Notes: generated by a model not told the origin, from the sequence alone. A stretch of DNA of 63,938 bases, filler included, from Reclinomonas americana ATCC 50394 (GCA_048213135.1; 13 parts of 13 records of this genome joined end to end with filler, not necessarily neighbours in it); one strand, 5' to 3'. Counted from the first letter of the whole stretch, positions 1,698-54,500 are shown. A program made the numbers and translations.

Positions 1698-2293
1698 ATG
1701 GGAGTGTCGTCATCGTACCCTCGGCGCCCGCAAGGAGTGACTGCAGTCCTTGCGTATGAGTTCGGGGCGATCAAGGCACACTTGGAGGCGCAGCGCGTTG
1801 TGCAGATTGCGCTCTCCCCTCAGCCAACAGTTGCGTGTGTTCTCGCGATCGCTGTTTAAATTTTGTTTTTGCCAGTGTTGCGCGCGCACGTGAACATATG
1901 CTAGCACGCGCTCACCACTTTACATACACGCCTTTCGTGCAGGACGAGGAGTCGCTGTACCTCTTCAAAGGGGGGTTTGAGCTTCACGCACGAGTGCACG
2001 TGCCAGTTGAGTCCCTCGGCGCTATCTTCGCATTGCACGTGAACGGCAACTTGCGGTGGTCCAGTCGCAGTGGCGTGTACAGGGGCTGCGGAATCTTTGA
2101 GATAGGACTGCTCCCTGTGACGTCTGGCAACGGAACCGTCACCATTGGATCCCGTCAGATCATCATGCGACTTGGTGACAGACCGTCGGCCCTGCGATAT
2201 GCCGTACGTTTCGCGAATCTCTCTAGGTTGTGGTGGCCTTGTCTCCCGAGCGCTGTGCTTGCGTCTACCAGTGCATTTGACCCACTTGGATAG
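1698..2293 (+). CDS. Hypothetical eukaryotic protein, spliced; possible N-myristoylation motif MGVSSS; 3' end uncertain
   Basis: ATG 1698 is open to a GTTGCGT donor at 1830. Intron 1830-1942 (branch-like CTCAC, GCAG acceptor) rejoins ORF 1835..2293 in frame (...SPQPT|DEESLYLF...). Confidence 0.5.
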
Positions 2294-2596
2294 GTGCCAA
2301 GTGCCCGTGGACGAGAGCCCTTCGCGATCGACTCCAGCGACGTCTGATCGCCTTGCAATTGTTGACAGTGCAAACAGGTCAGTTTCTTTGACCACCTCTC
2401 ACCTTCGCTGTCACTCACTGCCTGTTTATTTTCAGTGTGGATTCTTCGCCAGTGGCTGCTGAGCTTACATCCTATGTTATGTCAAGCGCACGGAGTGATT
2501 TCGCTGGGTGCGGGCGAGTTCGAGAGTTTTATCCCACCCCGCCGGCTTCTTTTTGTTCATGGTGGCGTGGTTTGAGAGAAGTAGCAGTTTCCCAAT

Positions 2597-2696
2597 NNNN
2601 NNNNNNNNNNNNNNNNNNNNNNNNNNNNNNNNNNNNNNNNTTAATTAATTAANNNNNNNNNNNNNNNNNNNNNNNNNNNNNNNNNNNNNNNNNNNN
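2597..2696. other. Artificial contig spacer (first of 12: 2597-2696, 5901-6000, 10174-10273, 15852-15951, 17220-17319, 29307-29406, 31401-31500, 41517-41616, 43455-43554, 57468-57567, 60697-60796, 62419-62518)
   Basis: Identical N44-TTAATTAATTAA-N44 blocks; the 12-mer places stops in all six frames. Confidence 0.99.
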
Positions 2697-3176
2697 CGGC
2701 GGCGGAGGCGGCGGCGGTGTTTGCAGGCGCTTCACTCCCGTCACCACACTGCGCGCATCGGTGACCAGTGGAAGACGGATCGGCGGAATGTGCGTGGGTC
2801 GCTCACGCGGGTGCAGAAGCTGCTCCCAGCCGGTGATCGTTGGGTGCAACTTGCGCCACTGTGAGAAATGAGAAGTACAGTGAGCATACACGCGCGCGTG
2901 AGACAGAGTGTGTGTGTGTGATAGAGGGGAGAGAGTGTGTGTGTGTGTGTCAGGGTGGCGTACTTTGGGCCGCCCTCGCGCGTGAGACATTCGAAGTCGT
3001 CCGATATTCGCATGAAATTTCGCGGAAAATCACCAAGCAACAGCGCGCAGTGCGGCAAGCTACATGATAACCATCTTGAGAGCACGCCAGCAGCTGAAAG
3101 ATCACAAAAAATCGAGAAAAAGTCAGCGTTTTCTGCATGGTGACAAGACGTGACAGCCGCATGCGAGGCAGCTTGA

Positions 3177-5871
3177 TCACATGACTTGCAGTAGGTTGCA
3201 ATCCAATAGTCTGAAGAACGTGTCCATCTTGAATTCGTGGTGGTCATCATGACCATGAGCTTCTGCGTTAGATTCGCGCTGTTTGTCGCAGTCAGAAGCG
3301 TTGCTCGATATTCATCGGCGTGCTCATTGTTGGGTATGGATCAGTGAGTTTCTATTATTATGGACATTTGTCGCATTATTGGAATGTGGTGAATGAAGTG
3401 TTTTTCTTTGAAGGCGATTCAACGCACAGAGAAAGCATCTTGCTCTTGCCGACAGCACCATCATTCGCCATATGCATTCAGTAACAAGCGACACAGGACT
3501 ACAAATAACCTCCTGCAGCTGCAGACCGTGCTCGAGCTGCTGGCAACAGTCTCTGTTGTTCGGGATTCCGGCCCGTTTCGTTCACGGGAACAACCGCGAG
3601 AGCAACAGACTGTGGAGCATTGTCGGCTTTCGTGCGCCTCAGCAGCGTCACCAGGAACACCGTGATGACCTCAATGGCCGTCACGTGGAACTTGAAGACG
3701 AGTGGGGTGAGCTTGGAATGCAAGTCTGTGTTCCAGTGGACAAGTGAGACAACCAAAGACCAAGCACGACAAGCAAGCACTGCGCACCGCCATAGACAAT
3801 CACAGAAATGTCGGGGTGCAGCTTGTCCACGTACGTCAGACCCAGTCGCACCACTTGGCCTGTGAGCATTACGCGACAGTGGGCAGTGTTGCTTCCCCCA
3901 GGCCCATCGACCCGAGACCAACATGAACGCACCAAACAGTAAAATCGTCAGGCCGATCACCACCACCGCTTTTCGCCACAGTTTCTCCTGACAGTACGTC
4001 AACACCTTGCTGTGTGTGTGCGCGCGACAGGTCAGTGCGGATGCTACTGCAAGTATGCGCCACGATCACTCACGCAACAGCGGATTGTGCTCAAAGGCCA
4101 CGAGTGGAACGACAATTGCCAGGGCGCCGATCAAGTGAATGGCAGTACTGATACCTGTTAGCAGGTCAGCAAACAGCGCAACACTCCAACAAAAAATGCG
4201 CACACAACTGTTTGCCACTCGGTTCACCGGCGCGGGGTCCAGGAGGGATGCGTCGCCACTACACACAATGGTGAGCGCATACGCCTCACAGTTGCACAGC
4301 TTCTTAGTACTCGCAAGTCTCACCCCAAAAAGTAAATCAAGTTGCAAGTGCACGACAATATCTCGGCCAGCCAGCCGATCAAGAAGAACGTATCCATGTT
4401 GAATTCGTGGTGGTCATCATGACCATGCGCCTCTGCGTTAGATTCGCGCTGTTTGGAGGAGTCAGAAGCGTTGCTCGACATTCATCGGCGTGCAAAATAG
4501 TGACCGCACCTGGCTGGGCTCGGTTGAAGTTGACATGCGTCTGTCATCATAATCTACATCTCCAGAGGCACTTGTGGCAGCACTAGACGTTCGCGACAAC
4601 GTATTCTGTCGTGGAGACACTGTCTCAGATCTAGAGCCTCCACGCGGTGGGTGCTCCGCTTGCCGTTGCTGCGTTCGTTGAAAAGTGAGCGATACTGCAT
4701 GTGAGCGCGGCAACGACTGACGAACCACCACCGCTCCCACGTTGTGTTTCGCCGCATCCACGCGCAACAGCGGCAGAAACACGCCGAGAACTCCTGCCAC
4801 GCAACACAGAGCGACAATAAAGCCGCCCACTGGCTTGGTCTGCTCGCCAAAGAAATCCAACACGTCTGAGGGCAGAGGTGACGATGAGCGACATGACATG
4901 GGAAACAGGCAAAGAATACTACACGCACCGGGATACAGCGCCGCCAGAACACCCACACCGCCCATGAGTGCTACCACAATCAGCGTCGGGGGCAGCACCG
5001 CTCCGCTGATTAAGCCGGCCAGAAAGGTCGCGTAACTGTGTTGAGATGAAGGCTCCTTGTCGCTGGTCTCAGGACTGTGTTTGGTATGCCCCTTTGGTTT
5101 CTTGGGAGGCGCGGTGAACGCCTTGTAAACAGTGAAGAACTCGTGGAGGTAGTAAAACGACAGCCACGCGACGGTGAATCCAAACAGTCGCTGCGCGTTC
5201 GCCGACGCACCAGTGGACTCCACCCAGCTGCGATAGCACAGAAACAAATAAGGAAAGCGCGCTCTCTCTCTCTCCCTCTCACTCTCCATCTCTCGCACAC
5301 GAAACTTTTGCAAGTGGTGTCCGAGAGTGTACATGACACCCAGCGAACCCACGATTGACATGTGCACGAGAAGCAGTGGCGTCAACACAGCTAACCTCGT
5401 TGGCGACTCCTCAAAAGCCGTGTACACGGTCCTTTCGCAGGCCCGCAATCGGAGAAGCAAAATGGCCAGCGGCAGGCAGCTGGAGAGAAGCGCCAGGTGG
5501 CCGCTAAAGAAGGTGATCTCGTACGCATCAAACGTGTGGTCCACTTGCTCGATGATAAAGGCGCCCCAGACACACACGGCAAATGAAGTCGCAAAGAGCA
5601 GAATGCTCAACAGCGATTCTGTCAACACAAAGTCGTCCACGAGGGGGGGAAATGACTTGCGCGCGAGGAGAATGGTCTGCGCAGCGTGGAGGAAAGCTGA
5701 GGTGGTATCACCAAGGATTGGCGTCAAAGGACTTTTTGACTCTTGTTTCCCCAGGTCACAGCGAAGAGTTGGAGAATGGGCAACAGAGAGGATTGTAGTA
5801 CACGGATAAAGCACGGCAGACAACAGAACGAATGATGACAGTGAACAAGGCAGCAGCAATACTACGTCCAT
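3177..5871 (-). CDS. Multi-exon polytopic membrane protein of unknown family; ends uncertain
   Basis: Many hydrophobic helices in ORFs 4462..5871, 4066..4353 and 3499..4005; GT-AG introns, e.g. 5305-5228 with a GTTTCGT donor and a (GA)n tract; the exon RESNAEAHGHDDHHEF occurs twice. Confidence 0.55.
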
Positions 5872-7494: not shown

Positions 7495-9381
7495 TTACAA
7501 CTTCTCCAGGCACTCCTGGAGCGAAATGTTCGGGTCGTCCATCAGCTTGACGTACGAGCCTGCGAAACGAACGTGAGCCTCACGCACACGAATCGCAGCG
7601 AAGAAAGAGAAGCCTCACCCTTGGTGCTCTTCTGCTTCGGGTTCTCGTCAATCGCCTGATCGTAGCAGGCCTTGTGGTCGGCCAGGTACTGGTCCTCGGT
7701 GTAGGTGCCAGAGCCCTCCGGGCACGTGTTCAGCAGAGCAAACTATACAGCACATGGAGATCAGTCAGTGGCTTCACACACGTCATGCAATCAAACAAAA
7801 TGAATGACGCACCTTGATGGCGTGCTCCAGAATCGTCTTGCCAACGTCCTTGGCATCCGAAACCAGGCTCAGCTGGCCGGAGATGGCGGCCTTGATGGCT
7901 GTGCGCGTCATAATGAGGAGACAAGGCAAAACAGACTGGTCAACAGAGATGTGCGAGTCTCGTACCAGTCTTGGCCACCCACTTCATCGTCGACTTCACG
8001 CCGGCCTTGATGCCGTTCTTGCACCCGCTAATGTCCTTCAAGCACACCGGTCCACACGAGTACTACACACAACGTCGTTAGCGCACCGCAATCCACAACA
8101 GGAAGCAGCGAAATGAGAGGAAGATGATGCTCACCTTGTAGACGCTGTCCGAGCGGCACTGGGAGGAGTTCACATACACTGTCAGAAACAATCGGCACAG
8201 CAATACGTCGTCGTGGCACTTCTACATCTCACCTTCTGCATGCACGCAAAGCCGATGCAAGAGTAGCGATTGGCGTGTGCGCCTCCGGTCTTGTTGAAGC
8301 GCACTTTCTGCAAAGTGCGCGTCTCGTGTGAGCAGTACAGGCCAACGGCGCTTCTCACTTGCACGCCAACGCAACTCGGCGGCACATGGAGGTGTTCCAC
8401 TTGACGGTGAGCTTCTTGATCAGGGTCTCGCGGTTGACGAGGCGCGACACGGCCTGACCAACGATCGAGTTGTCGACCAAGTCCTTGGCGGTGATCACCT
8501 GACCAGAGAGCAGGCCGACAGACTCCGAGCGCATCTGCTTGCGCTTGCTCTGATCATCCTCGATATCCTGCAGCGTCTGTCGCAAGTCTGCACTCGGGAG
8601 CGTAGCGTGAGTTCACCGGCACAATGGAAAAACCTGCACGACATATCGACATGCAAACCGTTGTTGACCTCCTCCTCCTGCAGGCGCGATCCGTTAGTCA
8701 ACAGAGCACGACGAGAATAGCACGCAACACGCAGATGCACTCACCCACATCTCCTGCATCTTCCTGACCGACGTCTCAACGTCTTGCGCTGGGAGTGACA
8801 CAAACCAACCAGTCAGTACACGAAAGCGACGAACAGCGGGCAGCTCTCTCACTCTCCTCCTTCTGTGCGCGTCTGCAATAGCGTGTGTGCATTCTCTCCT
8901 CTTTCTCTCTTTGACACACACCTGGGAACTCATACTCCACCGCATTCTGCTTCGAAATTTGCATGCGCTCATCCGACACAATCTTCTTGGCCTTCTTGAT
9001 GGCCTCATCCACCGGCAGCAAATCCGCCGCACTCTGCAGCACCTGCAGAATGTCGCCCGCCAACGCACTCGACTGCGCGTCTGCCAAGCTCATCCCCTCA
9101 TCCTCCTCACTATCCTCATCCTCCTCCTCGAGCAGCTCATCCAGCGCCCGCTCCACCTCCTCCTCCGACATGCCGTTGAACTGCTGCAAGAACGCCTCAA
9201 AGTCCACGTCATCGTCTTCTATACGAGACAACTGAGGCAATCAAACTACACACAAACAGTGTGCGCAGTTGCATGCAGAAGGCAAACCCTCGACTTCACG
9301 TGCATGCACACACGTGCACGCAATCAACACTGCAACCAGCAGCAACGCGAACAATACAACAATCGACGAATGCTGAGCCAT
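7495..9381 (-). CDS. Predicted secreted protein with an acidic N-terminal region and a Cys-containing C-terminal half; multi-exon
   Basis: ATG 9381 gives the signal peptide MAQHSSIVVLFALLLVAVLIACTCVHA. Exons splice in frame (e.g. ...TSMCRR|KVRFNKTGG... across intron 8375-8308 with a GTTGCGT donor) to ...SLQECLEKL, TAA at 7495-7497. Confidence 0.65.
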
Positions 9382-9538: not shown

Positions 9539-10097
9539 ATGGCGGCGCCTGAGGAGGATGTCAAACCGGCGCTGACCTTGCGGTTGCGTCTCTTAATCAC
9601 TCACTCACTCACACACTCACGGTGTCTCTCTCTCTGTGTGTCTCACTCATTGTCTGTTTCTTCAGTCATGTGTTTGGTATGCAGTCGGATGTGCAAGGCA
9701 GTGTGCACTTGTTGAATGAGACCACGTGCTTGTACCCGGCCGGCCGGTGCATTGTCAATATGGATTTGCAAACAAGAGTGCAGCGGTTCATTGGTGAGTG
9801 GATTGGAGGAGAAAAGAGAGAGAGGGAGAGAGAGAGAGTGTGTGTGTGTGTGTGTGTGAGAAAGGAGAGAAGGGAGAGGAAGAAAGTGACGAGAGAAAAG
9901 GGAGGGAGTGTTGTGTCACAGTACAACTCCAGAACCTCGCAAATCGTGCTTCAGAAAGAGTCCGCGCTGTGTGTGCTTATTGAAGCTTGTGAGATGCGAG
10001 AGGGGCGAGAGAAGCAGAGACAGGGAGAGGTGGAGGTGAGAGAGGGAGGATTGTGTCAAGGCACAACTCCAGAACCTCGCAAATCGTGGTTCAGATT

Positions 10098-10157
<60 letters not shown>

Positions 10158-13100
10158 TAGAGAGAGAGAGAGANNNNNNNNNNNNNNNNNNNNNNNNNNN
10201 NNNNNNNNNNNNNNNNNTTAATTAATTAANNNNNNNNNNNNNNNNNNNNNNNNNNNNNNNNNNNNNNNNNNNNTTCTCTTCCTCCTCTCCACGCAGTCCC
10301 CTCGGCACAACATGCGACAAAGAGCGAAGGCATCAGTGCCATGTCGTTGATGGGATCGCAGAACGAGCGCAAGGAGCGCAAGTATCTTGCTGTGGCGGAG
10401 CGCAGCAGCGAGGCGGCCATGGTGCACATTTACGAGGTGGCCACTGGTGAGTTGTGACGACTCCGAGACTCTCCAGCCCTTTGCTGCTCTGTCTCACATG
10501 CGTCTCAGGCCGACGAAAGAAAACGGTGACCTCGTCAAACTCGAACGACAAGGCCAAGGAGTACGTGTCGGTCGATTTTAGCCACGATGGCAAGCTGTTG
10601 ACGCTGGGAGGCGCACCGAATTACGGCCTGACTGTGTGGGGATTGGACGCAAAGAAGGTGCTGGCCTCCACCGAGTGTGTGGCGCAGGAGGATCTCTCCA
10701 AGCCGTACCAATGTGAGTCGACAGGCGGGCAAATGGGCATCGAGTGTTGCTCCCAAAATCTCTTTCCCCTCCTCCTCCTCACCTCTCTCTCTCTCTTCCC
10801 ACACAGCCGGCACTCCTCTCCCCGTCATGACCCAGTGCTCGTTCTGCCCGGCTGACTCGTCGCTGATTGCGGTCGTCGGCAACGGTGCACTGCGATTCCT
10901 CCGTGCCGAGGCCAATGGCTTCCGCGTGCTGGCCGCCTCGGCTCTGCGCGAGCCCAAGAACATTGTGGCACAGGCGTGGCTGCGTGGCACCGACGACCAC
11001 CGCTTTGTGGCGGCCACCGATCAGGGCGAGTTGCTGCTGATTGAGAATGGCGAATTCAAGGGCACAATTCACACGCAGGATGCGATGGGCGAGATTGTGC
11101 GCGTCATTTACCCGTTCCAGAAGGTTTGGCGCCACTCCAACCTCGCAGACGCGCGCGGCGACTCACCACTCTGCTTCGTGCAGGGCTTTATCGTGGGCAC
11201 CGACACGGGCAAGGTGGCGATTTACGACCGCTCCGATGCCGGCGACTTTTACTCTCGCGTGCGCACCGTCAAGCTGCTGGACAAGGACAAGAACGGCAAC
11301 CAGCTGTTTTCGGATCCACGGCCGGCCGTGGTGGGCCTCTCTGTCAATCCGGAGCAGACCATGATTGCAGTGTCGACGGCCAATCACCAAATCTTTTTGG
11401 TGTCCCTCAACCAGGACATTGAGAATGTTGCGTGCAAGCACAGCAGCAGTTCGTCCACTGCACTGGGTGCATGCTCATCTATCGCGTGATGCCAAATTTT
11501 ACACAGGACGTGTCGCTGCTGGCCGAAAGCTGGCACTCTGACGGCATCACTGCTGTCGACACATGCATTCGGAAGCCACTCATTGTCACGTGCGGCGTCG
11601 ACAAGAGTGTGCGTGTGTGGAACTACCACGACCACTCGTTGAATATTGTGCGCTTCTTCCCCGAGGAGGCCACTGCTGTCGCAATTCACCCCTCGGGTGA
11701 GTGTCGCTCGTGCGCCGGTTTGCTGGGTGAATGCGCGACTCACTTTTTTCCCTCGTGGCGCAGGTCATCACATGCTGGTCGGCTTCAAAACCAAGTTGAA
11801 GCTCATGGACATTCTCGATGACGACTTGAGAATTGTGAAGGAGTTTTCAGTGCGCGAATGTCGAGAGGTGTGTGTTTAACGGCAAGAGGGATGTACGAAA
11901 GAGCACTTGCTCACACTCCCCCCCCCCCCCCCGTCCTTTACGCAGTGCCGCTTCTCGCACGGTGGCAGCTTCTTCGCGGCCGTCAATCAACACAACGTGC
12001 AAGTGTACGCCACCTACACGTGCGAGTTGCTCAAATCACTGCGTCACATGTCATTGATTCAGTCGGTGGCATGGAAGGCCGACGATGCATCGCTCGTGAG
12101 GTGAAGGCAGAGAATGATGGAGAGAAGAGCGACTCTTGGTGCTCATGGTCTTCCTTTTCGCTTGCGCAGCTGCGCGGAGGACGGCTCACTCTTCGAGTGG
12201 CAAGTCGGCAACTTTGGTCTGCTGCACGAACACTCCACACCCAACTGTCGATACTCTTCAGTCGTGTACGGCCCCGGCGACACCATTTTCGCCGTTGGCT
12301 CTGACAAGCCCGTGCGGCGACACTACTTTCAAGAGTTCAACGGCAGCGAGGGCCAGGAGATCGAGGTCATCAACAGTCGAGTGGCGTTGTACAAGCTGCA
12401 ATACGCGCAGAACAATCGTGCCATTTACGCCGGCAAGGAGGACGGTCTGATTCGGTTTTATCCGTTCCCGCTGGAGCGAGGTGAGCGCAAAAAAGAATAG
12501 AGTGCTTGCGTCCTCTCTTTCTCCTTTATTCCCTTCTGAAAACCTTTACGTCCCAATCGCACAGATGTGTTTGAGGACTATGTGGCTCACCAGAACAGCA
12601 TCCTCTCCATCACCATGTCGTACGACGAGTCGACGCTGGTCACTGTCGGTCGCGACGGCTGTGTGATGGTGTTTGACGTGCGCGACATTTCCGAGCAGTC
12701 CAAGAAGCTGGAGGTGGCCTTCTCGGACGAGGTGCTCATTTCGCACTCAGAGCTGGAGCATCTGCGCACCATTATTGCGGGCCTGGAGCAGACGATTGAG
12801 ACCAACATGCAGCAGTACGACGTGAACATGAAGACTCGCGAGCGTGAGCTGCACTTGGCGCACGAGATGGACAAGGGCAAGTTGTTACAAAAGGTGGGTG
12901 TGTGTGCGTGAGTGAGAAGGGAGAATTTGTGTGCACAGTTAGACTCATCCATCTTGCCATCTCCAGCTCGACCAATTACAACAACAAGCCTCGGAGGAGG
13001 AGCACAGAAAAGAGGCCGAGATTGTGCGTCTAAGGAGCGAGATTCACAACGCGGAGCGTCTGCACGAAGAGGAGATGACGCGCAAGAAGAACGAGTTCAA

Positions 13101-15099
13101 GGAGAAGAGCGAAGCGATGAATCTGCGCATCAAGGAGCTGAATGAGCGCATCGAGGAACTGCAACGGCAACACGCGGAGGACATGGCGGCGATCGAGGCC
13201 AAGTATCAGGAGGAGTTGACGCAGCAACGCGAGGCTTTCCATGAGCGGTTGCGGGAGTGCGATTTGGCCATTCACAACCACAAGGAGATGCTCGAGTTCC
13301 AGAAGAAGTGCCACGAGGAGAGCATGAAGCAGATGCAGGACGACCACGACACACAACTGCAGCGCTCCAAGGAGAAGGCCCTGCTCGAGAGCCGCAAGGC
13401 CAAGGAGGACTTTGCGCAAGAAAAGGTACGCTTCGTGTCTGTTGTTTTCCCTTGCCAGTCATACCGTGGTCTCTCACTCTTTCGCTTTTTAAAGGGCGCC
13501 AAATCACTGGAAATCAACCGACGTACCAAGGCCGAGCAGGACGTGAAGAAGCTGCAGGAGCAGCTGAAGCGCAAGGAGGACCTGGTGGCCGAGATGATCA
13601 ACAAGCAACGCGACTACGAAAAGGAGATTAATCGGTTGAAGAAGGACGCGGCGGAGAAGGACAAGAACTTGATGGAGAAGGAACGCAAGGCCACCGAGTT
13701 GCGCAAGGAGAAACAGGAGCTGGAGAAGTTCAAGTACGTGTCGGAGCACCGTTTCCGTGAGCTGGAGAGCCAAGTCGGGCCGAAGAATGCCGAAATCGAA
13801 AAGATGGAGCGCGAAATCGTCGGCATGAATGAGGTGTGTGGAGTGTGGGAAGAGGATAGGTGGGTTGTGTGATATGGTGCTCACATGTTTGAGCAGGAAT
13901 TGGAGCGCTACGTGATGGAGAACAGCTTGCTGAAGACCAAGAACGACGACTACAAGATGAAGGTGCACGGTGCGCGCAAGGAGAACAAGCGCCTCCAATT
14001 CCAACTGCGCGACTATGCGCTGTTGCAACAGCGCTTCGAGCGCGATTTGCACGACCTGTTGACGGTCATTCAGGATCCGCGGGCGCTGAAGGAGCGCGTG
14101 CGTGAGCTGCACGAGTTGTATGTGGAGCAGCCGCAGCAGGTGGGTGGAAAGGGGAAGGAGAGGGGGAAGGGGAAGAGGGAGAGGAAGAGATGAGAGAGAG
14201 AGAGCAAGGGGATGAGGAGAGAGTGCAGGAAAAATGTGAATTAGAAAGTGGAGGAAAAGTTAAGCGTGATTAACGTGGAGAGGATAGGAAACGCACGGAG
14301 GGTTTATTGTTCGGCGAAGTGAGGGCAAAGTGAGAATGAGAAGGAGATGATCTGCAGGAGAGCTTGAGATATGGTAGACGAAGTGTTTATTTCTTGAAGA
14401 ATCTCTCTCTCCTTCATTTCTGTCTTCTTTGCCTGCTCGGGCGCTGGGTAGTTGCCGTCATGTGGACTTATGTGCGCCTTTTGTCACTGTACAGACGGCT
14501 GGTGGTGACGAGCCGCTTCGTGACGAGTACTCGCGGCAGCGCGAGTATCTGGAGAAGCAAGTGGAGTCGCTGAAGAAGAAACTGGCCAAGGACACGGAGA
14601 CGCAGCGCAAGGAGAACAGAAGAGTTTCGTTGATGCCGCTGGCACCCACAACTCTTCTATGCGTGGTCTGACTTTGTGTCGTACAGATTCTCCAAGAAAA
14701 CATCACTCTGATTCACGAAATCAACGAGTTGAGAAGAGAAAACAAGGCACTGCGCAGCATGGGCGCTGGCCAACGACCCGGTGCCGGTAGCTCGCACCGC
14801 CGACAGAGCTTCTTTGTCACGCAACAGGACGGCACGCAGCACGCTGGCGGTGGAGCGGGTGGAGGCTTTGACGTTGCGTCAAGGGATGGTTGCCCGGCTA
14901 GCCCCTCTTCCACACTCAGTTCTCACATGGCGTACAGGATTTTGATCCGCTTCGCGAGATCGAGCTGCAAAAGGCCGAGATTCAGCGGCTGCGAGCACGC
15001 ATTGAGGAGCTCGAGGGCCTGCACCGGCCGCAGTCACGAGAGCGACTGCCACCAATACACGGTTTCGACGCGACGGAGGAGATTGAATTTGCTCCGTGA
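9539..15099 (+). CDS. CFAP57: Cilia- and flagella-associated protein 57 (WDR65): WD40 N-terminus plus coiled coil; multi-exon, spans the spacer at 10174-10273
   Basis: Spliced N-terminus RHVFGMQSDV...LYPAGRCIV...VQRFI; motifs [97 protein letters not shown] and C-terminal RLPP; TGA 15097-15099. Confidence 0.93.
9911..10173. repeat. Two ~45-bp direct repeats (9911-9955, 10051-10095) and a (GA)n microsatellite in CFAP57 intron 2
   Basis: ACAACTCCAGAACCTCGCAAATCGTG occurs twice, 140 bp apart; the (GA)n run reaches the contig end. Confidence 0.8.
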
Positions 15100-15177: not shown

Positions 15178-15851
15178 TCATCTGCCTACGCTGACGATGG
15201 TGCCGTCGGCGGCCGCCGAGTACGCTCTGACCTTGGCCTCGGCTGGCGATGATTCGGCCTCCTCACTGGCCTGCAATGTTTCGCACTCGTCCAACAAACT
15301 GTGTGTGTGTGTGTGTGCACGCGCGCGACACGGTGGGTGAACAGAAAAAAAGGGGGGCAAGAATCACACGCATGCAATGAGGACGCAACAGCCGCATCGC
15401 CACATCGCCCGGCTCGGTGGCCAAGAACACACGAGCGTGTGCGATTGCGTTGGCATAGCGGCGGGCATTGTACGCGTCGACAGCGCTGTTTGCCAGCGCC
15501 ACTCGTGCACGCTCCTCGGCTGTCGCCTCCGATAGGGACGTCACCAGTTCGTACTGTTTTGTTGTCGGCGTTTGTGAGGACTGAAAAGGGGAGAAGTCGT
15601 GAGAGAGGGCAGAAGACGCAACAACAGTGGTGTATCCGCGCCCGCCCTTGGTGGGAATCGGCTGCAGGGCGCGGAACAAGAAGAGAGAGCTGGCTTGTGC
15701 GACAACGTCCTCCGTCACCACCACTGATGTCAGCAGCTTCTTGTTCAGCGCGTGGCAACGACTGGCCAGGGTGACCGTGTCACCCAACTGTAGAAAAGAA
15801 GTAAGATTTGGAAACGCGGGCTGCAGCTCAGAGAGACACACACACACACAC
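15178..15851 (-). CDS. Hypothetical protein (5'-partial) with a TPR-like helical pair, convergent with CFAP57
   Basis: Introns 15622-15554 and 15389-15299, both with GTTGCGT donors, join GYTTV|YELVTSL...AVDAYNARRYANAIAHARVFLATEPGDVAMRL|LLDECETLQ...; stop at 15178. Confidence 0.55.
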
Positions 15852-41444: not shown

Positions 41445-41496
<52 letters not shown>

Positions 41497-43565: not shown

Positions 43566-45160
43566 GGTGAGAGCGAGCCACACTTGTCGGCGAGCATGGC
43601 CCGCGTGTGCAACCTGCCACTGCCACAATTGCGTGTGGGCACACTCGACTCACTGCTCAGCCTCTCCGACGATCTCTCACGGTGAGTTCAGCAGCAGTGC
43701 CATCACACTGGGAAGAGAAGCGAGTGCGACATGGCATCACTTGCCCACTCTCTCTCTCACACACACACATACGCACTGTCTCTCCCTGTGCTCTCTCCTT
43801 TACTCACACTACTCACCCACCAAGAAGGAAGAGAGTGTGACAGGGAGAGAGATTTCACTCTGATGACAGTGATCAGAAATACACTTCGCTCATGTTGGAA
43901 TGTGTCTTGCAGACTTGATTCATCAATGTCGGGCGTGATGAGCAAGGTGGCACGAGCGGCTGCCGAGATCCGCGGCGGACAGTCACTGCCTCCGGTGGAA
44001 GTGCGGCCGGGGTTGACGGTGGAGCCAGAGGCGTATGTGACCGACTTTCAGTGGAGCGACACGTTCCCGTTGCGCAACAAGATGCAGCAAATAGTGCAGC
44101 AGATTGTCAAGTCGATTGCCGAGGTCGATGAGGGGCTGCGTGTGGAGACCTCGGAGGCGCAGAATGTGAAGAATGAGCTGTCGACCATCATGCGCAAGGA
44201 GACGGGCTCGTTGCAGTCACGGTCGCTGTTTGATGTGGTCAGGCCGGAGCATGTCGTCGATTCCGAGTACCTCAAGACCCTGTTTGTGTTTGTGCCTTCG
44301 TTGCGTCAGTTTGTGGTGCCGAGTGTGCTCGACGTGTGCTTGGTCTCTCACCGGCGGATCGCGCGTTGCAGATTCCAAAAGCGACTGTGGGAGCAGTCGT
44401 ACGAGACGCTGGCGGCGCAAGAGATTGGCCCCAATCAGATGCTGTACGTGGCTGTGCCGCGATCATCGATGTTGCGTCTCGTGTCTCTTGCCGGTGTGGC
44501 CCATTGTTTCCGAGTGCTTACGACAGTGTCGCACAGGGAGCTGTCCACGGATCAAGACGGTACGCTGTTCCGAGTGGTGGTGCTGGCCAAGTTGGCCGAC
44601 GAGTTCAAGCGCAAGTGCCGCGAGGGTGAGCTGCGCTTCACGGTGCGCGAGTTTGAGTACACACCCGAGCTGGCTGCCGAGGCACAAGGACGGCGAACGG
44701 AGTTGCAGGAGCAAAAGGAGAGAATGGATGTGAGTCGTGACGCGCCAGTGTTAACTCGCTTCTTTGTTGGGTTCGCGTTTCTCAATGCTGCGTGTCGCAC
44801 AGACGGACATGTTGGAGCACACGGCAGGGTACTTTTCGCAAGCATTCAGCAACTGGGTGCACCTCAAGGTCATTCGGGTGTACGTCGAATCGATTCTGCG
44901 ATACAGCCTGCCGCCACGGTTCAGGGCATATGTTATTCGGGTTCGTTTTGATCACACACGCCCTGGGAGTCTTTGATGGTGTGTGGCTCACCCGCGCGCG
45001 CGCACAACAGACGGACAAGAAGAATGAGAAGAAGGTGAAGCAAATGTTGGTGAAGCAGTACGAGCACTTGGGTGGTCTGGGATTCCGCGACAAGGATGTG
45101 GAGTCAGCGGCCAGCGAGGGCTTCCTGCCCTTTGTGACCACCACACTTACGTTCCACTAA
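43566..45160 (+). CDS. ATP6V1C: V-type proton ATPase subunit C (5'-partial)
   Basis: LRVGTLDSLLSLSDDL, YVTDFQWS, RKETGSLQSRSL, DSEYLKTLFVFVP, VPRSS, FTVREF, WVHLKVIRVYVESILRYSLP. Introns include 44300-44371, 44471-44536, 44730-44802 and 44941-45010. Confidence 0.95.
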
Positions 45161-45319: not shown

Positions 45320-48300
45320 TCATCTCGGTGACTCGCGCGACATGTGTTGCGGAGTGCCGGGGGATCCGCTCATTGGATTGAGGTAGTTGCGTGCCGGCGA
45401 TGGTGCCGCCGCCATGTGCGACTGTTGGTGTGGTGGCGGTGGTGGTGGCGGCGGGGGCATGATGGCCGGCATGGCCGCGTAATGTTGCCGCGGTGGCGAC
45501 GTTGGTGACGGTGAGTTGGCGTGCTGAGCTGCCATGAGCGCCAGCTGGTGGCTGTTGCGCGACGGCGGCGACTGCTGCGCCAGTGCCGGCGATGGCCGGT
45601 AGGGCAGGAGGGCCACGAGGCCCGAGTTGGTGTGCAGCAGTGGGTACTGCGGCGACGATGACATGGGTGATGGCATGGTGGCAGGCGACGAGGGGAAGAA
45701 GGCCGGCGACGGCGGCTCCTCCATCCACATGGGCGTCACGGGAGCGAAATTCGGCTGCGAGATAAGGCGATGAGTGGGCGGTTTTGCAGAGGCACGACAC
45801 GACACATGAGAGGAGGAACTCACCGACACCTTGTTGGCCTTCATGGCGCCAACCATGAGCTTGACGCGCTGATATCGGCGCCAGTAGACGCAGCTGAGGA
45901 ATATGATTAGGAAGAGCAGCATCGGGAGGCCCTGTGTGCAAAGATGGGGGTGAGTGAAGGGCATCGTCAAGTTGGGTCATCCGCAGGCATTGCGCAACGA
46001 CGGACAGCCCGACAATGAGGCCAATCTGATGGTGGTACACGGAGAGACAAGGAAAGTGTCAGATGGAGAATTGTGCGTTACCTCTTTGCATGCAAAACGC
46101 AACATTGGAGGAGCTCGTCCTGCTGGTGCTCGACGACTGGTCGGGAGTGGGCGTCGGCGTCGGTGTGGGTGTCGGCGTCGGCACCGTGCCTAGCTGGAGG
46201 GTGGTTGTCGACACTGTGGCTCCGTATGGTCCCGTGCCCGACCCGTTGACTGCCTGCGCTCTAAAGTAGTACTGTTGTCGCCGCGCGAGGGAGAGAGAGT
46301 GAGTCAGAGAGGGTGAGCATCACATGAGATGCGTGAACACAAAGGCACGCAACCAAGGTCAACGGCGCCAAGTTGTTGAGGGTCACCGACACGGTCACTG
46401 CTCGCACATGCACGTCGCGAGTCGATGACGCTGATGTTGCCGGTACCTGTGTTGTCACAACCACGGTGTCGAACGTTGGACTCGTGCAGTAGTCCACGTT
46501 GAGTGTTGTCAGCGTTGCGCCACCGTCCCACTGCAAAGTGAATGCCATGGTGATGGCTGTGGACGATGGCGTCGGCGTGGTGGCCGCGGGGAAAGGCGGC
46601 GTGGTGGCTGTGCCCTTGGTCCACAACACCGAGTCCGTGGGCAGGCTGTTGCCGAATGCAGAGCGCGCCAACACTCGGAAGTACATGACCGTCGACACGG
46701 AGACGGCGGAGACGTCAATCGACGTGGTCAACGTCGACACAACCACCTTGGTGGAGCCCGTGTAGTCTGGCTGAGTGGCCCGCTCGAGCTGTCACCCGTC
46801 GACGTGAGTACAGACATATATCAGCCTCATATTCTCACTCGCTGCTACAAACAAACCTCGTACACCTCGGCCGGAGGATTCTGCGTGAGATTGCACGATG
46901 CTGCGTCAGCCAACAACCAGAAGAGGAGCATCATTACTCCATGCATGCGACAAACCGTGCTGGATGTTGTCTGGTACGACGGTTGCCAGGAAAGTGTCAG
47001 TGCGTTGGCCACAAAATTGGAGACACACAGCGAGAGTGGTCGATGAGGCGGTCCGCGCACGGAAGACACTGCGACGAGAGGAGGCCATCAGCAACAGCAG
47101 CCAGACGCGAGGGGCCCCGTGAACATCGAACCTGCCGAGGTGGTAAATGTGACCGACACTGACGGCAACGACGTGCCAGAGGAGTTGGCCGCAGAAATGC
47201 GAACAAAGTAGCCAGTGGCATCGAACAGATCGCCAATGGTCAGTGTCTGCGGATTCTGCGAGACGCGGGACACTGTCTGCACCGCCACCGTCACACACCA
47301 CACCGCGTCAGCACACCGCCACATGAGCTCGGCAAACACATCATCACCGCACGCAACAACAGTGCTCGTCATGGGGGTGTACCCGACAGCTGCTGGGTAC
47401 GCGGCGCTGCGACTCCACTGCAGCGTGAACGTAGTTGGCAGTGGCGTCACGGAGGGATTGTTCCATGACAGAACCACCGTGCTCGATGTGATCTGTGCGT
47501 GTCGCAGTCAATCAGTTGATAGAATGCCACCATGTAGCCGACAGGTACACTGCAACCAACCGAGGACGCCGCGAGACCAGTGGGGGTGTCCGGCACGCCG
47601 GTCAAGTCGGCAACATTGGAGAAACTCTGACTACGCGTCACCAGCCCTGCGTGGAGGAGGAATGTTTGTATGCGCTGCTGTGACGCTCATGTACGCTGCT
47701 GAATACCCACCAAAAGAGTTCAAAAACTCGGACTTGAAGTAGAACTTGGAGCCGACCTCCAGCGCCGACAGCACCATGGTGGAACTGGCGCCGGCGACTG
47801 TGGCGTCGGCCTGTGTGCTGATGTAGTTGCCCTCTGTCGGAGTCGCAGATCCAGTGACCTTGTAGATACGTAATCTGCACACGACCGGCTGAGTGCATGA
47901 CGGATACACGCTCGTCAGCCAGTCTCACCACCACTCACCTCCGCTGGGTGACCGTCGCGCCCTCGCCGCCAGCATACTGCGGATGGAACAACGTGACAGT
48001 TACAGTGGTTCCGGAGGCGACAGCGGTGGGATTGGAAATGCCAATGGGTCCAATCACAATGTTGGTGCCGGAAAGCACCAGCGAGAAGTCCTGAGCGCCC
48101 GACGGCGTCGACTGTGCGTACACCTTGGCGGTGTATGTGCCCGCCGGCACTCCAGTCATGAGGATCTTCTCCGTCGTGTTCAGTGCGTCCACGGCCACCT
48201 GTATCATCATCGTCAGGACGATGAAAGGGCAGAGGGAGAGATAGCGGGAGACGACAAGGGCGCAACAATGGTCGAAAACAGCTGATTGCCGATTTGCTGC

Positions 48301-51300
48301 ACCGTGCCGGTGTCATCCGGTCCAGCAATCACCGACAGATTGAGATCTGAAACAATGGCCTTGCTGCCGCCGGCGGCCACCGAGCTGGGCGGGTAACTGT
48401 GCAGCAAAGTGATGAGATAAACAGAGTGAATGAATAGTCGAAATAGTCAGCCTTTGCACGAAACTCGGTCCAGCACAGAGTGAGGGAGAGGGATGCAGAG
48501 CCTCCGGCGACAACCACAAACGACGCGAGAAATGAGCCACCGGCAACCAGCGATGTGGTCTCCGCGGCAAGGACCAGCGTTCTAGTGGACAAGATAGGTA
48601 CACAAAGGGTAAGCAGACTGACAACATGCCGCGGCGGCATGTCCATATTTTAGCTCACCTCGGGTACACGCCAGTGGCCGACATGATGTTGCTGAGGTTG
48701 ATCCTTCCGTAGCCCTGCAGCTCACTGTTCTGCCGATTTGACAGCGTGTTGACGGCCGCCTGCCCGTTGCCACTAACTGCTCACACGCTTTGTCAGCTGC
48801 TTCATCAAAGGACAACACATCAAAGCACCCAACAAACCGTCGCCTCCATACTGCAGAGCAACACAGAGAAGTCAGACAAGTGTCACCAACCCACTCAACA
48901 CCACAATTCTCTCAATGAGAACTCACCAGCCCAGTGACTTGTGCGGCTGCGTTGATCAGTGTGGCTCGAATCAGCGACGCCGGTGGAGCACTGAACGGCA
49001 CACCCACCGACGACGAATTCGGATTGAAGGGATACTTGGAGCGATACCACTGGCGAATGAGAGTGGCTGCGCCGGTCACCGCTCCCGCCGCCATGCTGGT
49101 GCCCTGCAGGGACACGGTGGCGGCCGCCGCATTTGTCACTGCACAGATGCGCCAGGTGAGCAGTGGCTTCCACGGCAAAAGAAATGCGGTGCATCACGCA
49201 ACAATCGGCCGTGGCTCCCGTGCCGCAGCTGTTACCGGTACTGTCGGCAAAGCTCTTGGCACTGATCAAGTCGCCCCTGTTACCAAAATAATGAGCGACG
49301 ACTGCCAGCGCAGACGCACTGTGACATGTCACGCAACGGTGCAACCACAGTGACGCCGTAGCGACCGTCGGTGGTCGGACCACGCGACGAAAAGTACTCC
49401 ATGTTGTTGGCGTCGGCGGCATTCAACGTCGCACCCACCGACATGATATTCTTGGCCGACGCCTCACGCCTGCAAGCCAACAAGGGTGAGTGCACACGAT
49501 GCACAAACCTCGCAAGTGAGACGGGCGAACGCACGTGAGGCTCGGTACCGTGGGACCATTGTTGGAGGCAGCAAACACCACCAGCGTGTCCTGCAGATGG
49601 CACACGATGTGAGGGCAAGAAACAATGGCAGAAACCAACATGCACACACACACACACCTTGTTGCTGTTTGCAAACTGGTCAATGGCCATGCTGTTGGCC
49701 GAGTACTGACCATAGTCGTTGGGTGTGCCGGCACCCCACGAATTGTTGATAATGTATGCGCCGTTTCTGCGCATGCCACCCAGATACTGGCCATTGAGAT
49801 CGGGCGGTGTGTGCAACGCCGTGTTGTCGCACACGCCGCCGGGCAGGCCGGCACAGTCGCACGCGATATTCGCCGGACACGCGCAGCCGCTCATGGACGA
49901 GCACTGCAGGTCGAAGAAGACTACCTTGGAGCGCGGAGCAAGTCCATTGTATGCCGCCAGTTGGGAGCTGGACGGTGTGGCGTTGCCCTTGATGGAGCCC
50001 ACCTGTGCGACACGAAGTGAATACAAGCACATGGGAGGGGTACATGGGAGGGGTACACATGAAAGAAACACACCACATGTGTGCCATGAGCACCGTCGAC
50101 GACCTACACGACAGCAAAAACGTGAGCAAATCATGTGAGCACACAGCAGCGGCACAGAAGCGGTCGCACGAAACCTCGGCACGATCCATCCAGTCAAAGT
50201 AGCCAGCGAGGGCGCGGTGGGTGGACGGTGTGAAGAGGACAGTCGGATCGCGCGAGAACGAGAAATTGTTGTTGTCGTTAAAGTAGCAGGAGCGATAGTC
50301 CAGCCCCGAGTCACCCGCGCCTTGACGAACAGAAAGTGAGCAGATGGAAGGCAAGCAAAGATTTCCAGAAAGCACGTACCAATCGTCTCGCTAAAGCCAT
50401 CGAGAAGCGCGGAGAACGGCTCACTGTTCTGGAGACCGGTCTGCACAATCGAGCGCATGTCCCGGTTCATGGGTCGAATCGGCGCCGCCACATCGACCCA
50501 AATGGTACGCCGGTGCTGTGCTAGCACCGATACCGCGGCAGCAGCCTGCTCCTCATCGACAAACAGCGATATCACATGACCCGTTGCACGCATCCAGTGA
50601 TGGACTGCACGATGGTCGGCGTCAGCTCACTTGCTCTTCCCTCCATCTTTCTTCTCCCCCTTGATCCACTCACCCGTCACACCCGCCTCCCGCAGCTGCT
50701 GCACCAACTCCTGCGCGAATCCACTCAACAGCGAATCATCTCGATCGACAGCACCCTCCACTTGCAGGTGCACACGCGACTGCACCGGTGCGCCACGGAC
50801 TCGTCGCACGTGCGCCACAAACGACAGCGCACCCGCCTCGCCCGTCTCCAGCGCCCTGGCCGCCTTGGATCTCCGATTGAACACTGTCGCATGCTCGGCA
50901 ACCCACACAGTCACCAGCTCACGTTCCACTGCGCGCATCGCTCGTGCCGACGCCAGCACCAGATACGCATTGTCGGGCACATACAAGACCGAGTATCGCG
51001 CATACAAGTCGTCCACTGACTCGACCGCAGCACTCCCTTCGTCCTCACGCTGAAGGACTCGCGCAATGCGTTCGCGCAAAGCTGGACTCGCTCTCGGAGA
51101 ATCCCGCCCCGTCAGCGCCACCACAAACAATCGCTTCTCGCTGTCACTCGAGGTCGATGTCGACGTCCAGTGCAACGTCACTCGCGTGTCGACCACGTGC
51201 CCACCGAGATGCACAAGTGCGACATTGTGCTGCTGTGTCATGAATGAGTGAGTGAATAACGATCAACAACAGTTCGGACATTTTCACGCTTTCTCATGCA

Positions 51301-51423
51301 TGGTGCTGCTCTCACCTCTGTGTCACTGTGGGCGTGTGCAGTCGCGAGGGAGAGACATGCGAGTGTCACCAGCAGCAACAGCAGTGACAGTAATGACGCA
51401 GTGTGCCACTGATTTTGCGTCAT
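45320..51423 (-). CDS. Type I membrane subtilisin-like serine protease: signal peptide, prodomain, S8 domain (KP-43/Tag-like), beta-sandwich, several FN3 repeats, TP linker, TM helix, Pro-rich tail
   Basis: Catalytic motifs GDSGLD, HGTHV|VGS and GTSMAA; NNSWG, FAASN, AKNIMSVGA, FSSRGPTTDGR, LCWTD, DLNLSV; FN3 ends YFVRISAANSSGTS, YFRVLARSAFGNS, YYFRAQAVNGSGTG; TM IGLIVGLSV|GLPMLLFLIIFLSCVYWRR. Confidence 0.88.
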
Positions 51424-51596
51424 GTGTGCTCTCTCTCTCTCTCTCTCTTGTTCACTCGCTTGCTCGTTCGCTCTCCGCTGAACGTGAACAGGGAAGGCAG
51501 GAGAGAGGGAGGGAGGCAGAGGGAGAGATAAAGAAGAACGACACGCTGCAAGAAATGAGGGGACGGATAGGAGTCGCGACGCTCAACAGGACTTCA

Positions 51597-54500
51597 TTAA
51601 TCTTCTCCGAAGTCATCTTCTTCGTCGTCGTCTTCATCCTCGTCGTCCATGAGTACACGGGAGCGGCGAGCGGATGCTACCGGTGGCGGTGGTGGAGGAG
51701 GAGTTGCCGGTGCCGCTGCAGTCGCTGCTGGAGGAGCGGCTGCGGAAAGGGTGTGACGCTCGGTGCTCTGCCACACGTTTTCCTCATCATCATCGTCGTC
51801 GTGATCGTGCTTGATCTCGTTGGCTGGCACAGGTGCTGCGGTCGACGAGGACGACGGTCCAGCTGCGCAGGAGCCGGCGACAAAATCCGCAAACTCGTGG
51901 CAGCGCAGAAACGCGCCGGCTGGCAAATTCAAGGCCATGCCCGAGTTCTCGCAGCGGCGCATGTAGCTCAACACCCAGCCCCACGTGCGGCTCTCGGTCA
52001 GTGCATGCTCCGATCCGATCAGCATCAGGTGCCTGTGCTTGCATGAGTGCGCGCGGACACAGGAAAATCAAGAAAGGGACATCCTCACCGTCGAGCCCGG
52101 GTCAGCGCCACGTTCATGCGCTTCTTGGCGTCGACAAAGCCGAGCGAGGCCGTACGACAGCACGAGATAATGACAATGTCCTTTTCGGCACCCTGAAACG
52201 CGTCCACGGTCGACACCTCCAGCAGCGACTTGCGCTTCTTGCTCATGGCGCCGCACTCCTCCAGTTTCTCGCAGATCCGCGTCGCTTGCGCCTTGTCTGT
52301 CGCACTCGTCAGTCAGAATGTGTCGCCAACCGTGACGCACACAAACGCAACAGAGCGCCACCACGCCAATGGACTCTTGCGGCACACCGGCCTTCAGCAG
52401 CATGGTCACGGCGTGCACGGCCACCGTGGCCTCCAACTCGTTGAAGACACTCTTGCTGCCGGAACGCACCTGCTCACGGCCGTCCACGCAATTGACAAAC
52501 AGCAGTGGCGGCAGACCTGCTACCACCGCCGGTCGCTGCTCCGCGGTGATGCCGTCGACCAGCTTGAGGCCATAGAACAACTCGTTGGAGATGCGTGAGA
52601 TCACCGGATGGCACCGGTACTGCGTGCGCAGAATGACCACCGGCAGTCCGCAGTTGCGCAGGCGCACAAACAGCGCCTTGTCGATCCCCTGACCGGCGTC
52701 GCGGTCACTTGCTTCGCCGCCACCGGGCAGCGTCGGCGACAACTGGTTCGGATCGCCGATCGCCATCTGCACAGCCGTGTATCAACAACAACAACAACAA
52801 CACAGTGCACTCTCTGTCTGACGTGTCACGGGTACCAGCTTGCGGCATCCAAAATTGAGCGGAATCAGCGTCATGGGTTCCACACACTGACTGGCTTCGT
52901 CAAAGAGCACCACACTGAACTTGAGATCCATGTCCTGCAGCTGCTGGCAACTGGCGCACGTCGTGCCGACCACACGCGCTTGCGCCAGCAGCTGCCGTCG
53001 GTCGGCCGACGACTTGTTCTGCAGCATGGAGAGGGCCTGCCAAAAAAACACGGAGAGTGTGAGTAGTCAGCGATCCACAGGAAAGAGAGAGGAAAAACAA
53101 ACCTTCTTCACGCTGGCCTTTTCCGCTGGCGTCGCGGCCTCCCGCATCATGTCGTTGAGCGACTTGATTTCCTCCGACACCGACTCGCCCGCGGACAAGG
53201 CCGACAGCGTGTACGACAGCATGGACCGCGCAATGCGGCGCACACTGCCCACGCGCACGAATTCCGAGCACTTGCGCTCGGCAAGGCCCTCCAGAATGTG
53301 ATCCACGGCCACGTTGGTGACCGACGACACGAGGATGCGCTCCGTTGGATCGAGCACGCGCAACAGCAGCTCAATCACGCTGACCAGCAGGCGACTCTTG
53401 CCGGCACCAAACACACCATGCACCAGCAGCACGCTGGAGGTCTGTGGGGCGGCCGCGCCGCTGCAAAAGGTACCGGGCAGTACCCAGTCGGCCACCCGAT
53501 GCAGCACCGCCAGCTGGTCGGGATTCAGCGTGTACTCGCGCGCATACCGCTCCACCTCGGAGCGCAGCGCATCCGGCGTCAGCGTGCCCCGACCGGTCAC
53601 TCGCACCAACGGTGTGGACACATCCTGGCCGGACACCAGCGTCGGCAACAGCGGCAGGCGCTCCTCGGTCAGCGACGCGAGCGTGTCAATCATCTGCGAT
53701 GGATTGGGTGAGAAACAATGGCGGCTCGTGTGATGCACAGGATGCTGGGTCACGCAACGTGGAACACTGAGGAGAGATTGGTGGCGCGGATCGCCACCAT
53801 GCCACCGCGAATGGGCTCACTGAACCTCCGTGCCGAGCCCGACAAAATCGAAACCTCCACGAGGCTGTCGGAGGTGGGGCCGAAGAACACGGAGCGACAC
53901 AGCAGAGTGTCGAGGTTGCCTTTGCCGTCCGGTCGCAACACGATCCACAGGTCGTCTTTGGCATAACTGTGAGCACGATGTGAGTGACGAGTGGCGCTTC
54001 ATGAACGGCAACAAAACAACACGCAACCTGGTCGACTGTTCCGGGTCGACAATGTGGATAAAGTACGACGTGCCCACACTCACTCGCTCGCCACCGCCAC
54101 CGCCGCTGCCACTGCCACTGCTATTGCTGCTGCTGCAGCCAGGGAGAATGCGTCAACACGTCACTTTCCCACGTAACCGCTGATTTTCCACGACTGCAGG
54201 CTCACCGTTCGCGCGAGACCAGCGTGGTCTCAATGTAAAACGGCACACCAGCCGCTCGCATGTGGGCGGTGAGCGACGAATCGGCGTGTGCCAGCACCGA
54301 CAGATCTTTCAGCGGCGGCGCACGGGAGGAACCACCGCGCCCCTCTGCAAGCTTGTGTGAGCATCGAAGCCGCAGCCACCATGCCCCACTCGGTCCACGG
54401 CAACGCAACTCGGTGCACCACTGAAACCCTTGGCAGCGCCGCCGCCGCCGGCGCCAGCGCCACCGCCGCCACCTGCGCCGTCGGCCCACTTGAAGTAGTC

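Follow-up and report, generated by a model that had tools for sequence, protein, structure and literature searches.

The DNA analysed here (the window; 63,938 bases, 57% G+C) consists of 13 draft contigs of Reclinomonas americana ATCC 50394 (GCA_048213135.1) joined by twelve 100-nucleotide (nt) linkers, and its bases 1-57467 hold intron-rich eukaryotic genes, among them those for a CFAP57-type flagellar WD40 protein, a Ulp1-type protease, a giant tandem WD40 array, V-ATPase subunit C, a subtilase, and a ZGRF1-type helicase. We focus on 25 heptamers in this eukaryotic part, mostly GTTGCGT, which an original prediction had proposed as 5′ splice sites (donors) of a routine class displaced by one extra T (here the GTT class), occurring beside introns with more familiar donors (the canonical class). 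All tests rest on the window sequence and on homologous proteins, and they partly support the proposal: the GTT class appears to be real and frequent, it follows a rule of its own, and on energetic grounds it is not explained by a conventional U1 small nuclear RNA (snRNA) that pairs in a shifted or bulged register.

All 25 heptamers are present in the window at the positions given below, where the coordinate of a minus-strand site is that of the first G of its donor. GTTGCGT is commoner than chance: counting both strands there are 34 copies, whereas 100 dinucleotide shuffles gave 14.6 ± 3.7 and never more than 23, so that none reached 34, and an order-3 Markov model expects 12.1. The excess of ~20 copies is restricted to the insertion of T, and under the same model GTAGCGT (2 observed vs 2.7 expected), GTCGCGT (13 vs 16.9), and GTGGCGT (17 vs 20.6) show none, nor is GTTGAGT enriched (11 vs 8.0). 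A CTNAY branch motif followed by CAG, with no AG between them, lies 50-120 nt downstream of 17 of the 34 GTTGCGT sites, compared with 879 of all 8471 GT sites (10.4%; Fisher p = 7e-9) and with 3/34 when the opposite strand of the same sites is read. This architecture accompanies 15 of the 19 GTTGCGT sites in the original prediction but only 2 of the 15 others, and we therefore take the former to make up the excess and the latter to be chance background. A gene finder whose scoring draws on codons, the branch motif, and CAG, which sees a donor as GT and nothing more and was used for short introns only, took GTTGCGT as the start of 7 of 41 short introns, compared with its share of 34/8471 among GT sites overall (p = 3e-10); an earlier version built on codon statistics and bare GT..AG was discarded as noisy, given to confusing strands and to calling spurious long introns.

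Junctions were placed with our own protein-to-genome spliced aligner. Its sole rules are GT..AG and the three intron phases, and it is thus blind to the rest of the donor. Its references were one homologue for V-ATPase subunit C (P0001, 35% identity), 42 homologues as a profile and 12 taken singly for CFAP57 (obtained through a HMMER library search, a word index at its 'longer' setting having given none), and ten for ZGRF1, and an intron was called robust when at least 7 of the 12 CFAP57 alignments, or at least 6 of the 10 ZGRF1 votes, agreed on it. These alignments delivered 25 robust introns, five in V-ATPase C, 12 in CFAP57, and eight in ZGRF1, of which seven are predicted to start with GTTGCGT or GTTTCGT (95% confidence interval 12-49%), in keeping with the proposal that these are routine donors of real introns. 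The donors recovered blind are those at 44300 and 44471 (V-ATPase C), 11427 and 14624 (CFAP57), and 52351, 53758, and 54027 (ZGRF1). When the donor was forbidden, the alignment lost 8.1 bits at 44300, 33 at 14624, 6.7 at 52351, 4.2-8.7 at 53758, and 5.1-7.4 at 54027, and by these costs homology is decisive at five sites. Removal of the intron restores frame and colinearity at all seven, clearly at five; the remaining 18 sites, which show open frames only, are putative in this respect. The unshifted donors GTGAGT, GTGCGT, and GTTCGT were seen within the same genes as GTT donors, as had been claimed, and the GTT class makes up roughly a quarter of introns (7/25 of those defined by homology), mixed within genes with the canonical class.

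The V-ATPase subunit C gene (43597..45160, plus strand) has five introns, with donors GTGAGT, GTTGCGT, GTTGCGT, GTGAGT, and GTTCGT in that order. Its two GTTGCGT introns, of 72 nt (44300..44371, +) and 66 nt (44471..44536, +), both come from the spliced alignment to P0001 with ungapped flanks; a rival to the second, 44481-44540, is just 1.6 bits worse but ends in GAG rather than CAG. In the CFAP57 gene (9539..15099, +), with 12 robust introns by homology and less certain junctions at 9583, 12894, and 14873, a GTTTCGT intron of 63 nt (14624..14686, +) was chosen by 12/12 pairwise alignments, and a GTTGCGT intron of 80 nt (11427..11506, +) by the profile alignment, by 8/12 pairwise alignments, and by the gene finder, the other 4/12 running from 11453 or 11486 to 11529. 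The same gene is predicted to open with a GTTGCGT intron of 83 nt (9583..9665, +), taken by the gene finder and possessing the branch and acceptor architecture, in a region that 1/12 alignments reach. Towards the C-terminus, a GTTGCGT intron of 65 nt (14873..14937, +; or 47 nt if it ends at 14919) is taken by the gene finder and contested, as three alignments choose 14873, three choose 14816, and the profile alignment takes 14816-14919. One of the linkers falls within the CFAP57 intron 9794-10296, and the flanking exons are in the right order. A further CFAP57 intron, 11124-11183 (+), is an in-frame, stop-free 60-nt interval on which 12/12 alignments agree, and its donor GTTTGGC fits neither donor class cleanly.

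The ZGRF1-type helicase gene (51600..54700, -) has eight robust introns, three of them with GTTGCGT. The one in the helicase domain (52297..52351, -; 55 nt) was found by 9/10 alignments; solved Upf1 chains align up to its donor, the frame resumes after it with YKAQ, and splicing from the ordinary-looking GTGCGT that lies 11 nt downstream would put the reading out of frame. The other two, of 65 nt (53694..53758, -) and 61 nt (53967..54027, -), were found by 7/10 alignments (two chose 53767) and 6/10 alignments (two chose other donors), respectively. This gene also holds a GTTGCGT outside the original set, at 54345-54409 (-). A branch motif follows it, and a TTGCAG end comes 65 nt downstream, but the region is glycine-rich and unconserved, which is why no alignment picked it. 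The ZGRF1 intron 52767-52835 (-) carries the odd donor GTACCCGT, which lacks G at +5. It has the support of 10/10 alignments, and its flanks abut when placed on solved helicases. A second, candidate GTACCCG donor is called by the gene finder at 48667.

The GTT class (n = 25) was compared with a canonical set of 22 introns, 16 from homology and six from the gene finder. All 25 GTT introns start with GT, and in most respects downstream of the donor the classes are alike: median length is 69 nt vs 69.5 nt in the canonical set, the branch motifs CTCAC, CTCAT, and CTGAC occur in both, with a median distance of 19 nt to the 3′ end, CTNAY is present in 24/25 vs 17/22, and the 3′ end is CAG in 24/25 (the proposed exception being TAG) vs 21/22. 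The seven homology-anchored GTT introns share the same 3′ features. We are confident that the GTT sites are real donors, at which short GT-AG introns of the ordinary kind begin, handled by the major (U2-type) spliceosome. At the donor itself the classes part. The GTT class has T at +3 and G at +6 in 25/25 and T at +7 in 24/25, giving the consensus GTTGCGT, and beyond +8 its positions look random; the canonical set, mostly GTGAGT, has G at +3 in 19/22, G at +5 in 21/22, and T at +6 in 17/22. The variable position of the canonical donor (+4: A 13, C 4, T 3, G 2) is in the GTT class a near-invariant C (+5, 24/25; p = 5e-8). The last exon base (-1) is G in 20/22 canonical introns, compared with T 9, A 6, C 6, and G 4 in the GTT class (p = 2e-7), a difference that persists among homology-anchored introns only (G in 1/7 GTT introns vs 16/18 others; p = 0.001). 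The GTT class is thus probably a distinct donor class and not a blurred canonical one. The description of these donors as the normal donor plus one T survives in a formal sense, GTTGCGT being GTGCGT with an extra T, but not as the normal spectrum moved by one base: a shifted canonical spectrum is contradicted by the C in 24/25 at the variable position, by G at -1 in just 4/25, and by the lack of GTTGAGT enrichment.

Pairing energies were computed with ViennaRNA against a conventional U1 5′ end (an assumed 11-mer) and not against this organism's own U1. Canonical donors pair at a mean of -9.0 kcal/mol, all in the canonical register, compared with a mean of -1.4 kcal/mol for GTT donors in the best register of any kind, 9/25 of them lying at +0.5. 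A full shifted helix forms in 2/25 GTT donors and a bulged helix in 3/25, so that the class as a whole lacks a stable helix with the conventional U1 in any non-canonical register, and the analogy drawn earlier with human GUUAAGU donors read by shifted or bulged pairing fails on energy. A perfect complement of GTTGCGT would pair at -8.6 kcal/mol, within the range of the canonical class. With pairing to the conventional U1 near zero, an altered reader (a variant U1 or U6, or another molecule) is likelier than plain shifted or bulged pairing.

The best explanation overall, to which we give a probability of roughly 0.45, is that GTTGCGT introns are read by a dedicated or altered 5′ splice-site reader, most simply a second U1-type snRNA whose 5′ end carries ACGCAAC and would be complementary to GUUGCGU. 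Two donor classes, G|GTG(A/C/G/T)GT(G) and N|GTTGCGT(G), the latter rarely as GTTTCGT, GTTGCGC, or GTTGAGT, share one 3′ machinery; cleavage would remain at the first GU, where U6 would then take over with one nucleotide looped out. A conventional U1 presumably exists here as well, because the canonical class fits it well, and the GTT class would need another sequence-specific reader because that U1 hardly pairs with it in any register. That a dedicated RNA reader exists seems to us a little short of an even bet. We advance only tentatively the fuller proposal that the major spliceosome here works with two 5′ splice-site codes side by side, one U1-type snRNA serving each: a conventional one for G|GTGAGT-type donors and the ACGCAAC one for N|GTTGCGT.

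An alternative that we find possible though rather unlikely is that a single conventional U1 reads both classes, pairing with GTT donors in a register shifted so that G+1 lies opposite the U1 base that normally faces exon position -1, or else by bulging a U at +2/+3, while proteins such as U1-C or Luc7 compensate for the weak helix. The motif itself speaks for such a slide, since GTTGCGTG moved by one base agrees with G|GTGCGTG at 7/8 positions, including the G after the core (13/25 at +8 in the GTT class vs 13/22 at +7 in the canonical class), and a full shift of register, though not a bulge, would predict that G at -1 is lost; non-canonical registers are, moreover, experimentally established in human cells according to the part of the source available (PMC4856993). 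Against it stands the near-zero predicted pairing just described. The near-invariant C (24/25) would face a U1 pseudouridine that favours A, the base that the canonical class does prefer (13/22), and the better-pairing GTTGAGT is not enriched; the one GTTGAGT donor in the class, at 20264, is the only member that pairs well in a shifted register (-5.9 kcal/mol). The human bulge at +2/+3, as given in the available text, is predicted for 68 of 201,541 donors (PMC4856993), against about a quarter of introns here.

Recognition of GTT donors might instead owe nothing to U1 pairing, a reading that we consider improbable: a protein binding UGCGU-type sequence, or the tri-snRNP (U4/U6.U5 small nuclear ribonucleoprotein) acting directly through the U6 ACAGAGA box, U5, and Prp8, would select the site, and U1 would be dispensable or permissive. 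A conserved heptamer almost devoid of U1 complementarity does call for some sequence-specific reader. U6 contacts about three intron bases in spliceosome structures, too few to explain conservation from +3 to +7, and we know of no protein with specificity for a UGCGU-type intron start. That the cleavage point is fixed by U6, U1 just marking the site, is however stated in the available part of the human study (PMC4856993). The motif could also be a birthmark, if a single insertion mechanism or mobile element brought the GTTGCGT end along and landed in arbitrary exon sequence; this concerns origin only and is compatible with the other mechanisms. Arbitrary insertion would account for the absence of a G preference at -1 (4/25 vs 20/22 in canonical introns), but the 25 introns compared among themselves gave no match longer than 14 nt, the best being 10 nt, they lack the likeness along the full length expected of introner-type elements, and they look random after +8. 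A motif kept in 24/25 introns while the remainder decayed must be under selection for splicing. We hold the birthmark to be a long shot. Outright artefact, through misplaced junctions or a compositional excess of the heptamer, we regard as very improbable: the window is a stitched draft, and most of the sites lie outside the reach of homology, but no shuffle attains the observed count, the architecture is enriched on the sense strand (p = 7e-9) and not on the opposite one (3/34), and seven junctions in three unrelated genes were recovered blind.

Several points weigh against a dedicated reader, or against the data on which it is built. No snRNA gene was found in the window at gathering thresholds, those for U11, U12, U4atac, and U6atac included, and a scan of bases 1-57467 at E values up to 1 returned only two weak, microRNA-like chance matches; the proposed reader is purely inferred. 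All junctions are known from genomic DNA and homologous proteins rather than from spliced RNA, and 18 of the 25 sites are supported by signals and open frames rather than by homology, which is itself not discriminating but merely permissive at two of the other seven, where forbidding the donor cost 1.6 bits (44471) or, with one homologue, 0.0 bits (11427). Six of the 22 canonical comparators come from the gene finder rather than from homology, and the comparison of 3′ ends is partly circular because the 18 unanchored acceptors were chosen by the branch and CAG rule. The energy calculation takes pseudouridine as U and leaves out U1-C and other proteins. Finally, for two intron sets with different donors in Ostreococcus (considered below), the authors raised changes in snRNAs or two spliceosomes and, in the available text, thought a single spliceosome likelier (PMC2483917). 

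Other placements of the splice signals were considered and rejected. If cleavage fell one base later (TT..), neither the GT nor the AG rule would hold, and CAG sits exactly at the boundary of the GT register; the GT at +6 of the motif, taken as the true donor, would shift the frame at the anchored sites. Pairing between intron ends, as in euglenid non-conventional introns, was sought by eye, and the 3′ ends hold no consistent complement.

The 18 sites for which there was no usable homologue each have a plausible acceptor 61-113 nt downstream, and include the two less certain CFAP57 junctions described above. Coding potential falls within the proposed introns (-0.095 vs +0.03 and +0.06 bits per base). 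In the Ulp1/SENP-type protease, a GTTGCGT intron of 65 nt (27839..27903, +) was chosen by the gene finder and has the expected architecture, and its junction fits what we take to be the Ulp1 motif; solved structures aligned solely downstream of this junction, and a query with the upstream exon found none. The subtilase gene has eight putative GTT introns on the minus strand. At 49277..49337 (GTTGCGT, 61 nt; architecture), splicing would yield what is presumably the ...APG..I.S-type subtilase motif, and the exon after 50104..50174 (GTTTCGT, 71 nt, with the TAG acceptor) opens with a GHGTH-like sequence that we assume to be the catalytic-His motif. These subtilase junctions rest on such motifs because no solved homologue matched at E <= 0.001; the exon is poorly conserved. 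Architecture likewise points to introns at 49139..49202 (GTTGCGT, 64 nt), 47277..47357 (GTTGCGT, 81 nt, in the Fn3 region), 46272..46353 (GTTGCGT, 82 nt), 46026..46103 (GTTGCGT, 78 nt), and, together with open frames, 48397..48464 (GTTTCGT, 68 nt). The last, 45932..45998 (GTTGCGC, 67 nt, in the hydrophobic tail), has the architecture and is the weakest of the 25, with one in-frame stop within 90 nt in the frame test.

The other putative GTT introns lie in unnamed genes. Architecture suggests those at 1830..1942 (+; GTTGCGT, 113 nt), 22641..22728 (-; GTTGCGT, 88 nt), where the flanking coding signal is weak, and 5228..5305 (-; GTTTCGT, 78 nt), which has long open frames on either side. The GTTGCGT intron at 15554..15622 (-; 69 nt, with a 42-nt alternative possible) combines architecture with a gene-finder call, and its neighbour at 15299..15389 (-; GTTGCGT, 91 nt) was taken by the gene finder, no CTNAY branch motif being found in it. 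The candidate at 8308..8375 (-; GTTGCGT, 68 nt) has a branch motif and a GCAG end and failed the strict test for exclusion of AG, and the GTTGAGT intron at 20185..20264 (-; 80 nt) is flanked by open frames. At 4066-4078 (-), GTTGCGTGAGTG holds a GTTGCGT donor that overlaps a GTGAGT donor at an offset of 5 nt. Both precede a single good acceptor at 4010, and either may serve.

The remaining features of the window are of a general kind. The twelve linkers are identical (N44-TTAATTAATTAA-N44, with stops in all six frames) and lie, e.g., at 2597-2696, 5901-6000, and 10174-10273, with nine more. The WD40 array (31445-40961, -) comprises at least six propeller units of ~1.25 kb each, in which long open frames are split by single stops, three of them spanned by the gene finder with predicted introns of ~200 nt starting GTGTTTTT. 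A strong DUF6875 domain (16097-17218, -; E = 4e-42) adjoins a pseudouridine synthase fragment. In the last three contigs (57568-63938; ~62% G+C) the genes are of bacterial type, i.e., for a solute-binding protein, two ABC permease components, a GH32 glycosidase, and an MFS transporter, and these contigs are probably a contaminant or an associated bacterium within the draft; the GTTGCGT at 63047, in this part, is a chance copy. For the eukaryotic genes, the closest identities found were 35% for V-ATPase C, 48% for a CFAP57 exon, the best solved match of which is the trypanosome flagellar protein CMF6, and 43% for a ZGRF1 exon. The homology searches run here turned up no close relative for any gene of the eukaryotic part, and among metagenome contigs 182 pattern matches yielded none that was confirmed. 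Judging from these low identities, the lineage looks poorly sampled.

The 5′ end of U1 and the donor consensus that matches it are among the most conserved pairings of eukaryotic gene expression, and out-of-register donors are, to our knowledge, known only as rare human exceptions. If about one intron in four does carry a fixed heptamer to which a conventional U1 should scarcely bind, then either the initial step of splice-site recognition has been duplicated and given a new target in a lineage, or U1 pairing can be dispensed with far more readily than has been thought. Software for gene finding and spliced alignment that was trained on GTRAGT-type donors would annotate a genome of this kind wrongly. 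Were there indeed two U1-type snRNAs, GTT introns would form a third intron class beside the U2-type and U12-type, and the first step of recognition would be all that sets them apart from the major class.

Among known systems, a full-text search found no description of GTTGCGT donors in print, returning only primers and unrelated sequences, with figure logos, supplements, and subscription papers outside its reach. The closest mechanistic parallel is in human, for which Roca and Krainer in 2009 and Roca et al. in 2012 reportedly described shifted-register and bulged U1 pairing at rare donors. Like the GTT sites, the human shifted and bulge +2/+3 sites belong to GT-AG introns, start with GUU, have the conserved G and U one base deeper, and are cleaved at the first GU; U1 pairs with the human sites in a non-canonical register. 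By the available text, all non-canonical U1 registers together account for 2.1% of 201,541 human donors, and the 68 predicted bulge +2/+3 sites fell to 54 after curation (PMC4856993). They differ from the GTT class in being A-rich after GUU, which gives a real helix with U1, whereas the GTT class has C there and a predicted helix near zero.

U12-type introns have a characteristic 5′ motif and their own branch motif near the 3′ end. They too are a second class within the same genes, and a dedicated snRNA reads their 5′ motif, which is longer and hardly varies. In the available portion of the same human study, they amount to ~0.36% of mammalian introns (PMC4856993), vs ~25% for the GTT class here. 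The GTT class has neither the U12-type 5′ consensus nor a separate branch motif, and its branch motif, spacing, and 3′ end are those of the canonical class. Variant U1 snRNAs with altered 5′ ends have been described in human and other animals. They are the kind of molecule proposed as the GTT reader, which here is a candidate only, and no variant U1 is known to us to handle as large a share as a quarter of the introns in a genome.

Euglena GT-AG introns, as described in the available text of one report (PMC11170887), have a GTGTG consensus, C-rich tracts, and CAG, and in these respects resemble the canonical class here; that text says nothing on GTT donors. The nearest precedent for two donor codes in one genome is Ostreococcus lucimarinus, in which two sets of introns have different 5′ consensus sequences, one of them an atypical and constrained GTGCGTG (Irimia & Roy 2008, PMC2483917, from the part available). 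That sequence is the GTT-class motif minus its extra T. The Ostreococcus motif, again from the available text, stands in the normal register, in an intron-poor genome, with a branch motif of its own and with the two sets on different chromosomes (PMC2483917), whereas here the genes are intron-rich (at least 12 introns in CFAP57), single genes contain introns of both classes, and the motif, with its extra base, stands one position out of the normal register.

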